A DNA stretch of 64,000 bases from an uncultured Acidobacteriota bacterium (GCA_963741955.1 CAVUKB010000005.1:64001-128000), one strand, 5' to 3'. Positions 36,422 through 38,912 are shown, counted from the first letter of the stretch. Notes: generated from the sequence alone by a model not told the origin. Numbers and translations are program-made.

Positions 36422-36898
36422 CTATCGCGATTCCGGCCGGATCTCGATGCCGAACGGAACCGAACTGCCGGGAGTGGCGAGCATCTCGACGTCCGAAGTC
36501 TCGTTGGGGATGGTCAATGTCACGCGGGTTTCGTCGCAACTCTTGATCGTGGGGGTGGTGATCCGGTCGACCCCCAGATCTCGGGATTCGAACTGCATGC
36601 AGGGATCGACGCATGGCGGATCTCCCGCCGCGGCGGGATGCTCACTGCAGTAGTTCGGATCGGTACGAAGACAACGGGTGTAGGTACGCGAGACGACCAG
36701 GGTGGCCGTGCCGGAGAGCTCACCGTAATTCTTCACGGTGATGGTCAGGATTCCGGTTTTCGAATCCGAAGCCTTGAAATCTGCGCCGGTCACCGAAAAT
36801 ATCGCTCCGCGCTCCTCTGTCTGAGCGAATGCGGCGAGAGCGAAGGTCGAGAACAGCATGAGGATCACGGTCGAGGTACGTTGACGCGCAGGGGTCAT
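36422..36898 (-). CDS. secreted Cys-containing hypothetical protein
   Basis: AAGGAGG RBS, signal peptide ending AFA, beta-rich with 5 Cys. Confidence 0.55.
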   Translation of the reverse strand: MTPARQRTSTVILMLFSTFALAAFAQTEERGAIFSVTGADFKASDSKTGILTITVKNYGELSGTATLVVSRTYTRCLRTDPNYCSEHPAAAGDPPCVDPCMQFESRDLGVDRITTPTIKSCDETRVTLTIPNETSDVEMLATPGSSVPFGIEIRPESR

Positions 36899-37114
36899 CA
36901 GATCCTCCTTTCGTCGTCCAGTCACGTCCGGCTGACGAAGACGGCTCTGATTCTCAAGATAGAGACCGGGCCGCGGTCGGAAATGATGCGTTCGCATCAG
37001 ACGAAACCGGCATGGACCCGGCACGTCTCAACTGCAGACGAAGAATTGACTCGGGAGCGTATTTCGCGTAACAAACGCTCCGGCAGGCCAAGAATCGAAA
37101 CAGAAGGAGAGTGG

Positions 37115-37717
37115 ATGAGCAGAAAGATCGTAGGTACCATGACCGTCATCATGGCCCTCGCCCTCGTAGGGTGCCGTTCCGACGGGGGAACGCAGACGAC
37201 GGCGACCGAAAGCACCGCAGGCCAGGCGACTGCGACCACCCCGGCGCCCTCCACGGCACCCCCTGCAACCCAGACCGTTGCCACGTCGAGCGCTCCGGCT
37301 GAAACCAGCACCGCGGTCATTCCGGCGACCACGTCTTCCGTGAGCAAGGCCCCGGGAAGTCCGGCTCTGATCAAGGAGTCCAACGTTCCGTTCCCGGATG
37401 TCCCCAGGATCATGCCGGACGAGTTGAAGAAGCTGTACGACTCCGGCAACGTCGTCATCGTGGATGCCCGATCCGCGATCGACTACTACAACGACCATAT
37501 CAAAGGAGCACGAACGATCCCTCTGGTCCAGCTGCCGATGAAGATGAACGAGCTGCCGAAAGACCGGATGGTGGTCGCGTACTGCACGTGACCGGACGAA
37601 GAGACGAGCGCCCGTGCGGCGCATGAGCTCGAGCAGGCCGGATTCACCCACGTCGCGGCGCTCAAAGGCGGATTTCACGCCTGGGAGAACGCCGGATACC
37701 CGACCGAAAAGCAGTAA
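37115..37717 (+). CDS. rhodanese-domain lipoprotein, candidate selenoprotein (TGA 37589-37591 read as Sec)
   Basis: AAGGAG RBS, lipobox LVGC, Thr/Pro linker, IVDAR..HIKGA..VAYCT-TGA-PDEETSARAA..GF..V.ALKGGFHAWENAGYPTE; SECIS-like hairpin at 37608-37622. Confidence 0.85.
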
Positions 37718-37739
37718 GAAGCGGATCTTCCATCGCGGC

Positions 37740-37773
37740 GAGGCAACGGCGCAGGCCGTTGCCTCTTTCTTTT
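37740..37773 (+). terminator. rho-independent terminator
   Basis: GAGGCAACGGC-GCAG-GCCGTTGCCTC followed by TTTCTTTT. Confidence 0.85.
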
Positions 37774-38249
37774 GATCCTTCGACGTATTTTCGATTCCCT
37801 CCGCACGACTCCTTTCTCTGGAAGGATTCGAGGAGCCGGAAGAATGTCGAGTACGTCCTGGAATCCCTGGCGGAGCCGGCACGTCCGAAGCGCGGAAGTG
37901 CCCGGCGGACCGCTTGCGCGCGGCTATCCAACGATAGGACGAAAGAGACCCCTCTCGATAGTGAGATCCCGCGCGTCAGGAATGCTACGATGGAGCGCGC
38001 ATTCGTGAGGTCGAAGTGCGTCGTGCAGCTGAGCGAATCGGGGCGGCGATCTCGATCGGAAAGAATTCCGGAGTCACGGTGGGGATGAATCACGCGCAGA
38101 ATCGACAGGACGCGGAATCGCAGGAAGCGGGAACGCGGGGGTGGAGGAACGGCATGAGTTTTCAGCCGACCGGCATTGAATTCTTGTCAAATCACTCCAG
38201 TCTTGCTATTGAGGATCCGTCAGCAGCGGGCGGACGTCCGATACTCGTC

Positions 38250-38912
38250 ATGAACAATGGTTCGCGGGAACGCCGCAAGTACGAACGGGTGACCCTACCC
38301 AAGCCGTGGCCTGCCCGCTTGGACAATGGCCGAGCGTATCTCACCGAACTGTCGATCAACGACGCGCGCATTCTCCATCAGGGACGGATTCCGGAAGGAG
38401 AGACGCGATCGCTCCAGTTCGAGTGGGAAGGCTATCCTCTGACGTTCCGCTGCCAGATCGAGAAGAGCGACATCGAACGACTCTCGAATGAATCTCCCAG
38501 CAAGACCATCTACCGGAGCGAAGTCGTCCTTCTGAATCTCGGAACCAGTGCCTCCGGATCACAGCTTCGTGAAATGGTCGCGGACCACGTCCGTCGCGCG
38601 CTCGACGAGCAGAAGGCGAACGCCCGCGGCATTCCCGCGCTCGCCGCGAACTCCTACCAGACCGGATCGGCAGAGAAGGGCTATCTCACCTTCCGGTTCG
38701 TGCGGGGAGAGTGGGTGCGCTCAGAGACGAACGACCCGAAGCAGCCGATCGACGGATTCACCATCGCGGCAACCGAGGATCCGGAACAGATCGAGCTGCT
38801 TTGCACCAGCTACGTCGACGCGGATCACGAGGGACGGAAGATGATCCGGAAGATGGCGGAGTTGAGCGTGAGCGCCCTCGAAGGGATTCCCACCCGCAGA
38901 TACAAACCGTGA
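38250..38912 (+). CDS. PilZ-like domain protein
   Basis: ERRKYER (RxxxR) and degenerate ELSINDA (D/NxSxxG position). Confidence 0.6.
   Translation: MNNGSRERRKYERVTLPKPWPARLDNGRAYLTELSINDARILHQGRIPEGETRSLQFEWEGYPLTFRCQIEKSDIERLSNESPSKTIYRSEVVLLNLGTSASGSQLREMVADHVRRALDEQKANARGIPALAANSYQTGSAEKGYLTFRFVRGEWVRSETNDPKQPIDGFTIAATEDPEQIELLCTSYVDADHEGRKMIRKMAELSVSALEGIPTRRYKP

Follow-up and report, generated by a model that had tools for sequence, protein, structure and literature searches.

The gene at positions 37115–37717 (+) of the window, the 64,000-nucleotide stretch of DNA from an uncultured Acidobacteriota bacterium that was analyzed here, is a real selenoprotein gene of the catalogued CxU rhodanese family, and it belongs to a probably tethered, exported clade that falls below the threshold of the curated model for that family. 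The UGA codon at positions 37589–37591 (+), which occupies the position of the rhodanese catalytic Cys in alignments and in the homologue column, is almost certainly decoded as selenocysteine (Sec). If codon 159 (UGA) is translated as Sec, the coding sequence is complete, with 200 codons plus TAA, and a Pfam rhodanese domain extends across the TGA. When decoding and gene integrity are considered jointly, it is very likely that the gene is an intact, single-gene transcription unit for a 200-residue selenoprotein.

Gene Structure and Local Context

The frame begins at ATG 37115, which lies 5 nt downstream of a Shine–Dalgarno-like AAGGAG (37104–37109, +; recognized by direct reading of the sequence). 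The sole in-frame stop before TAA (37715–37717) is the TGA at 37589–37591, which comes after ...VVAYCT; past it, the same frame continues for 41 more codons (PDEETSARAAHELEQAGFTHVAALKGGFHAWENAGYPTEKQ) up to TAA, and codon 159 has the context ...VVAYCT-U-PDEETSARAAHEL.... Beyond the stop codon, sequence folding indicates an intrinsic terminator (37740–37775, +), in which a terminator-like hairpin with an 11-bp stem and a 4-nt loop (37740–37765) is followed by the T-run TTTCTTTT. The ORF, the TGA, the 41-codon extension, the terminator, and the hairpin that follows the UGA had all been described in an earlier note on this DNA, and each was found again at the same position.

The upstream neighbors are an acetyl-CoA synthetase gene and, on the other strand, an ORF of 200 aa (36422–37024, −), and the downstream neighbors are an ORF of 298 aa (38016–38912, +) and then a PAS histidine kinase gene on the other strand. 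This flanking layout, together with the gene's own terminator, gives the gene a monocistronic appearance. Both flanking ORFs are without a Pfam match at E ≤ 0.001, and the window's own neighbors give no functional clue in the Pfam scan. The ORF at 36422–37024 (−) has a signal-peptide-like stretch within it. A Pfam scan of 79 flanking frames from 29 loci of relatives revealed no common partner, and the small syntenic groups in these flanks consist of enolase (3 loci) and of signal peptidase S26, beta-eliminating lyase, and RtcB (2 loci each). In an Rfam scan of positions 37000–37900 (E ≤ 10), the best match was to the BjrC68 sRNA (37681–37774, +), which was rejected at 26.6 bits against a threshold of 39; this match coincides with the 3′ end of the gene and the terminator, and most likely reflects the terminator hairpin only.

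The earlier note had raised the possibility that sequencing reads would have TGC or TGG in place of TGA. A Logan contig of the probable source run (soil metagenome DNA), made by another assembler from the same data, is identical to the window over positions 37100–37758, and so has the same letters, TGA included. In a search of sequencing runs for this stretch, the probable source was the one DNA run that holds it, and no RNA run was listed.

Rhodanese Domain and Active Site

Pfam PF00581 spans the TGA and covers residues 101–192 (37415–37690, +) with a score of 64 bits against a cut-off of 22.2 (E = 1.9e-17). The AlphaFold2 model of residues 88–200 has a pLDDT of 94, and its best Foldseek matches are all rhodanese domains (3tp9, 3nhv, 6mxv, and Alr3790; TM 0.81–0.85). 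Tyr156 is the last residue of the central strand in the model, and the loop that leads into the next helix is formed by C157-T-U159-P-D-E. Sec159 is the first position of a six-residue loop, U-P-D-E-E-T, which is followed by S.

Sec159 aligns with the Cys of ...NCAGRTRS... in domain 2 of 1yt8 and of ...YCGSGFRS... in 6mxv (HMMER), and with the Cys of ...VCESGERS... in P0014, a canonical homologue (BLASTP). The loop Cys in these three proteins is the catalytic Cys of the rhodanese active site. The earlier note had placed Sec in the active-site loop; the three pairwise alignments bear this out and sharpen it, in that Sec159 aligns with the catalytic Cys itself.

Certain other residues around this site are strongly conserved among the 30 clade members that were aligned (see section Homologues and the TGA/Cys Column). 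Cys157, the partner Cys in C-x-U (codon TGC, 37583–37585, +), is invariant in all 30, as are G98, G99, and W103 (domain alignment numbering), which lie after the TGA. The loop after Sec is acidic throughout the clade (P-D/N/A-E-E/H-T/S), with a near-invariant Glu and no conserved Arg.

Homologues and the TGA/Cys Column

Homologues were sought in 60 related genomes and found in 56 of them (57 of 61 when the host genome, G000, is counted). The best locus per genome was fetched, giving 30 loci including that of the window, which were aligned using tblastn. Only these 30 fetched loci are counted here, since the in-frame TGA flags of the homologue search do not give a reliable number of Sec forms: the flagged TGA of locus L021 is a stop upstream of the ORF.

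In the 29 relatives, the column of U159 holds TGA at 21 loci (of which one, L031, represents genome G022), Cys (TGT or TGC) at 8 loci, and any other residue at none; the context of the TGA forms is YC[TAS]-TGA-P.... The alternation of TGA with Cys is the pattern that the earlier note had proposed to look for, and Trp or Arg, which it had named as contrary outcomes, are found at 0 of the 29. The host genome also has, outside the window but on the same contig, a second Sec paralog (C5:526977–527399; YCT-TGA-PHEETSARAAL), which has the same downstream hairpin and carries an N-terminal membrane anchor in place of the lipobox. In named genomes, 339 more loci of the Cys form fit a YC[TA]C... pattern, although this search used Cys back-translated as TGY, so that it retrieves Cys forms only and gives no Sec/Cys ratio. 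The closest named contigs with Cys forms belong to Thermoanaerobaculia and Acidobacteriaceae, and include both metagenome-assembled genomes (MAGs) and isolates, which makes an acidobacterial host probable.

Gene callers treat the TGA as a true stop, which would make the gene a pseudogene or the source of only a 158-residue truncated rhodanese, with the downstream frame as a remnant. The protein collection contains just such a product (P0002), a 158-aa entry identical to residues 1–158; no stop codon is commoner in the window than TGA, which ends 50 of the 63 open frames that are 300 codons or longer; and some termination at the UGA is expected under selenium shortage, as it is in any selenoprotein gene. 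However, the TGA column is kept in 21 of the 29 relatives and in the second paralog of the genome, the 41 downstream codons are conserved at the protein level, and the truncated product would be without the last helix–strand–helix of the modeled fold. Among 72 other genomes of the same taxonomic family, 67 have the pattern of TGA followed by the hairpin (see section SECIS Hairpin), and the median terminal branch in the protein tree is 0.65 changes per site, a distance over which a decaying remnant would lose its frame, motif, and hairpin. A true stop at codon 159 is thus extremely improbable. With regard to annotation, the earlier note had held that the gene is easily mistaken for a pseudogene; it is indeed stored wrongly, but as the truncated protein P0002 and not as a pseudogene.

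On an unrooted maximum-likelihood tree, the eight Cys forms lie interspersed with the Sec forms, and the well-supported branches require a minimum of five switches between the two states. Because the same hairpin occurs throughout the Sec forms, Sec is probably the ancestral state and Cys the derived one, so far as an unrooted tree can indicate direction.

Machinery for Selenocysteine Decoding

The host genome (5.44 Mb; 99.1% complete), in which the window is G000:C5:64001–128000, contains every component of the Sec machinery that the earlier note had suggested looking for. The selA and selD genes score 395 bits and 359.5 bits, respectively, each over its curated cut-off, and selB scores 320.7 bits (350.6 bits when its C-terminal piece is included) against a cut-off of 242. 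A tRNA-SeC with the anticodon tca was found in the same genome by aragorn. The selD gene (G000:C7:622971–623912) has an in-frame TGA of its own at C7:622998 (...TTGG-TGA-ACKLG...), which indicates that the SelD protein of the host is a selenoprotein too.

SECIS Hairpin

The Sec insertion sequence (SECIS) hairpin downstream of the UGA (37605–37625, +) consists of a core stem, GCGCC/GGCGC (37608–37612/37618–37622), and an apical loop, CGUGC (37613–37617; CGTGC in the DNA), and its stem is extended by two further pairs beyond an A–A mismatch. The core hairpin begins 16 nt past the UGA and its loop begins 21 nt past it, with G–U at loop positions 2–3; counting from the first base past the UGA, the loop G (37614) is number 23. 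In the bacterial SECIS (bSECIS) model, as set out in a review, the loop has 3–9 nt, the stem 4–16 bp, the distance from UGA to loop is 16–37 nt, and the minimum free energy is −7.5 kcal/mol or lower (PMC13188914, Fig. 2 legend). According to the same review, one of the first two nucleotides of the loop is a G, which mostly precedes another G or a U (PMC13188914). The hairpin of the present gene, with a loop of 5 nt, a stem of 5 bp plus 2, a spacing of 21 nt, and −9.8 kcal/mol, fits these published criteria as judged by hand rather than by bSECISearch. The search for a bacterial SECIS element that the earlier note had called for thus had a divided outcome, in that the hairpin agrees with the published model, whereas the Rfam scan of 37000–37900 (E ≤ 10) gave no match to SECIS families.

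This hairpin, with the form (A)GCGCC, C/G-G-U-G-C, GGYGC(U), is present at the same place in all 22 TGA genes, the window's own included, and is absent from the 8 Cys genes. In the TGA genes, the synonymous sites of codons +6 to +10 are frozen (AGC in 22/22, GCC in 22/22, CGT or GGT in 21/22, and GCG in 20/22), whereas the flanking Pro and Glu codons are free to vary. The mean energy of the 24-nt window at this place is −12.9 kcal/mol in Sec genes, as opposed to −6.2 kcal/mol in Cys genes (n = 8). In the window's own gene (−9.8 kcal/mol), the lower stem is weakened by the A–A mismatch, and the loop-closing C–C is unpaired.

The association between the hairpin and a preceding TGA is specific. 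A degenerate form of the hairpin pattern occurs 10 times on the two strands of the 5.44-Mb genome, and a TGA lies 19 nt upstream of the pattern in only two of these occurrences, both of which are the rhodanese paralogs. Of the 301 genomes sampled from the class, 105 contain the TGA-N16-hairpin pattern, with some of the matches outside the family being clearly chance GC-rich ones; within the family, as mentioned above, the figure is 67 of 72 other genomes. A reversed control pattern was found in about 6 of the 301 (counted by eye).

The 72 nt after the UGA fold no better than shuffled sequences (z = +1.37; 188 of 200 shuffles at least as good), and among the 22 Sec genes, none of the eight hairpin pairs changes on both sides, and compensatory changes do not exceed a shuffle control. 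Four of the eight pairs never vary, and one alternates between G–C and G–U (14/8). In favor of the pairing, 86.9% of cells are paired in the Sec-gene hairpins, compared with 33–53% when the partner strand is slid. Since the hairpin overlaps conserved codons (S-A-R/G-A-A/V-L), part of its conservation is due to protein constraint. Given this overlap, the lack of compensatory changes and of a fold excess over shuffles, and the Rfam result, the case for a SECIS element rests on synonymous-site invariance, exclusive association with TGA, and fit to the bSECIS model, and not on covariation.

One Cys form (L018:1927–1989, genome G009) has a different hairpin at the place of the SECIS element, with a 7-bp stem, a 9-nt loop, and −11.0 kcal/mol. 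Possibly, this hairpin is left over from an ancestor with Sec.

The distribution of the hairpin also bears on how the UGA is read. Read-through of the UGA without selenium, to give a standard residue (Trp, Cys, Gly, or Arg) through near-cognate or reassigned decoding, would also account for conservation of the downstream frame. Cys is, however, the only alternative residue in the column (8/29), with no Trp, Arg, or Gly, and the column is that of the catalytic Cys. In addition, the genome encodes the full Sec machinery, in which SelD depends on Sec decoding for its own synthesis, and a SelB-type hairpin is found with all of the TGA forms and with none of the Cys forms. TGA ends most of the long frames in the window, which indicates that no global reassignment is at work. 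Read-through with a standard residue is therefore hardly credible, and the Sec reading of the UGA advanced in the earlier note is supported by the machinery, by the TGA/Cys column, and by the agreement of the hairpin with the published criteria.

Probable Export and Membrane Tether

A bacterial lipoprotein signal has a basic n-region, a hydrophobic core, and a lipobox whose final Cys lies among the first ~35 residues. The N-terminal sequence MSRKIVGTMTVIMALALVGC (37115–37174, +) has the form of such a signal peptide, with a basic n-region (MSRK...), a hydrophobic stretch (TVIMALALVGC), and the lipobox L-V-G-C, which ends at Cys20 (37172–37174); the lipobox was called from the translation using a regular expression based on the general rule above. 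Residues 21–94 (37175–37396, +) form a Thr/Ala/Pro/Ser-rich low-complexity linker, which is presumed from its composition to be a flexible tether. This linker of ~75 residues, which precedes the rhodanese domain, consists to 85% of P, A, T, S, G, Q, and E, and has a weak Pfam match to 'Mucin' that is below the cut-off.

These features are largely shared within the clade. A hydrophobic segment for export or anchoring is present at the N terminus of each of the 30 members, and 13 of the 30 have a lipobox; the N termini of the others look like membrane anchors or plain signal peptides. A low-complexity linker precedes the domain in nearly all members. The exported lipoprotein that the earlier note had described is consistent with the lipobox at Cys20 and with the hydrophobic segments of the clade, and these N-terminal sequences suggest that the rhodanese selenoprotein is probably tethered on the extracytoplasmic side of the membrane.

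Two of the Cys forms (L021 and L039, from genomes G028 and G032) have almost no linker and carry a C-terminal extension of ~150 residues past the rhodanese domain.

Proposed Mechanism and Function

In the proposed mechanism, SelB carrying Sec-tRNA(Sec) would bind the hairpin after the UGA and insert selenocysteine at codon 159 in place of termination. The N-terminal signal peptide would then direct export, Cys20 would be lipidated, and the domain would hang from the membrane on its Thr/Ala/Pro-rich tether of ~75 residues. Sec159 would act as the nucleophile and accept a chalcogen atom, either sulfane sulfur or one from a selenium species, in an Se–S or Se–Se adduct, which Cys157 would resolve with formation of an intramolecular selenenylsulfide; a periplasmic reductant would have to re-reduce this bond. 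From uptake at Sec159 and resolution by Cys157 it would follow that the protein is a periplasmic chalcogen carrier or reductase rather than a thiosulfate:cyanide transferase, a role that is proposed tentatively and that may well prove to be another. Function is argued here from the anatomy of the protein because the gene has no conserved neighbor. The sulfur/selenium transferase put forward in the earlier note is likewise a putative role.

The proposed chemistry is the weakest step of this mechanism, because the active-site loop is acidic and without a conserved Arg, unlike that of anion-binding sulfurtransferases. As judged from the aligned sequences, the acidic loop argues against thiosulfate-type anions as the substrate. 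The same acidic character and near-invariant Glu, which are unfavorable for anions such as thiosulfate, would suit a different role, in which Sec is decoded but the C-x-U center serves at the cell envelope to bind soft metals or metalloids, or to detoxify them (Hg, Cu, Cd, As, or Te/Se oxyanions), without carriage of sulfane sulfur. Tables in reviews of selenoproteins list metal-related members with Cys/Sec pairs, and ExtH, a rhodanese-like lipoprotein of Geobacter, is linked to selenite entry (PMC8981825). Metal-resistance genes are not conserved near the rhodanese gene, however, with an LTXXQ/Metal_resist neighbor at 1 of 29 loci, and the best family matches of the protein are all to sulfurtransferase-type rhodaneses. 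A role in metal binding in place of chalcogen transfer is accordingly improbable.

The carrier or reductase role could also be extended to the clade. The tethered C-x-U rhodanese would then be an ancestral, family-wide extracytoplasmic selenoenzyme, with 1–3 copies per genome and at least five reversions to Cys, that acts as a periplasmic selenol–thiol redox catalyst on polysulfide, sulfane sulfur, or selenite. Such an extension is speculative, and in its entirety we regard it as rather unlikely; if true, it would define an exported rhodanese oxidoreductase, a class without a characterized member, and distinct from the cytoplasmic CxU proteins behind the curated model.

Significance

No new kind of biology is involved, as the decoding mechanism and the protein family have both already been described. 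The analysis puts right a systematic annotation error of the lineage, whereby only a 158-residue fragment is on record for the gene. Because of this stored fragment, and because the curated NCBI model does not reach the clade, automatic pipelines will keep truncating the gene. In addition, a selenoprotein family that has so far only been predicted gains a probably exported, membrane-tethered form. The clade also offers a natural Sec/Cys series, with at least five switches and loss of the hairpin in the Cys forms, which can be used to study the retention of selenium at this site.

Comparison With Known Systems

A CxU rhodanese selenoprotein appears in the tables of reviews as 'COG0607 form 2' (PMC9312934) and as 'form 3', which corresponds to the model NF041203 (PMC13188914), and in these tables it is a prediction only (PMC9312934; PMC13188914). 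A rhodanese-related sulfurtransferase is also among the selenoprotein families of the Sargasso Sea paper. In the literature search, no exported CxU rhodanese was found to be described, although the family lists in the supplements of selenoproteome papers could include tethered forms.

NF041203 (rhodanese_LYCAU, 'rhodanese-related (seleno)protein') resembles the present protein in having a single rhodanese domain with Cys-x-Sec where the central strand ends, and a UGA-encoded Sec. It is the best NCBIfam match for the protein and for 29 of the 30 clade members tested (E ≤ 1e-18), and the match runs end to end (profile positions 18–125 of 126). The Cys-x-Sec motif, listed as CxU in the review table (PMC13188914), is present as C157-T-U159. 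The score falls short of the NF041203 cut-off of 115 bits, however, at 101.5 bits for the full length and 103.2 bits for the domain; none of the 30 clade members reaches this cut-off (68.5–103.2 bits), and the host genome has no member above it. The protein differs further from the 126-position model in its ~94 extra N-terminal residues (signal plus linker) and in its motif, which is A-Y-C-T-U instead of the L-Y-C-A-U of NF041203.

Among Cys-dependent rhodaneses, PspE of Escherichia coli and Sud of Wolinella are small, exported, single-domain periplasmic proteins that carry sulfane sulfur on one active-site Cys. The present protein is likewise a small, probably exported, single-domain rhodanese, whereas PspE and Sud use Cys, are soluble, and are without a second Cys two residues upstream. 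In profile comparisons, the protein scores 37.4 bits against GlpE and 27.4 bits against PspE, far below the cut-off of 102 that applies to each.

ExtH of Geobacter sulfurreducens is similar by description, as a rhodanese-like envelope lipoprotein discussed for selenite entry in the passages on the ext genes (PMC5877670; PMC8981825). It differs in its size of ~49 kDa and in belonging to a conserved ext cluster with porin and cytochromes (PMC5877670), whereas the gene in the window has 200 codons and is solitary.

Fusions of DedA and rhodanese in Acidobacteriota (L125–L127; genomes G046, G058, and G002) contain the same C-x-U module (YCT-U-PNEASAARVA) with a TGA in the same column. They resemble the present gene in the hairpin that follows the UGA, which has a CGUG-type loop, in their occurrence in the same bacterial class, and in their membrane association. 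Cys versions of the DedA–rhodanese fusion are also found in the protein collection (P0004, P0005, and P0010). In these fusions, which have ~310–330 aa, the rhodanese domain is located at the C terminus of a polytopic DedA protein (PF09335), whereas in the present selenoprotein the domain is predicted to be carried on a lipid anchor and linker.
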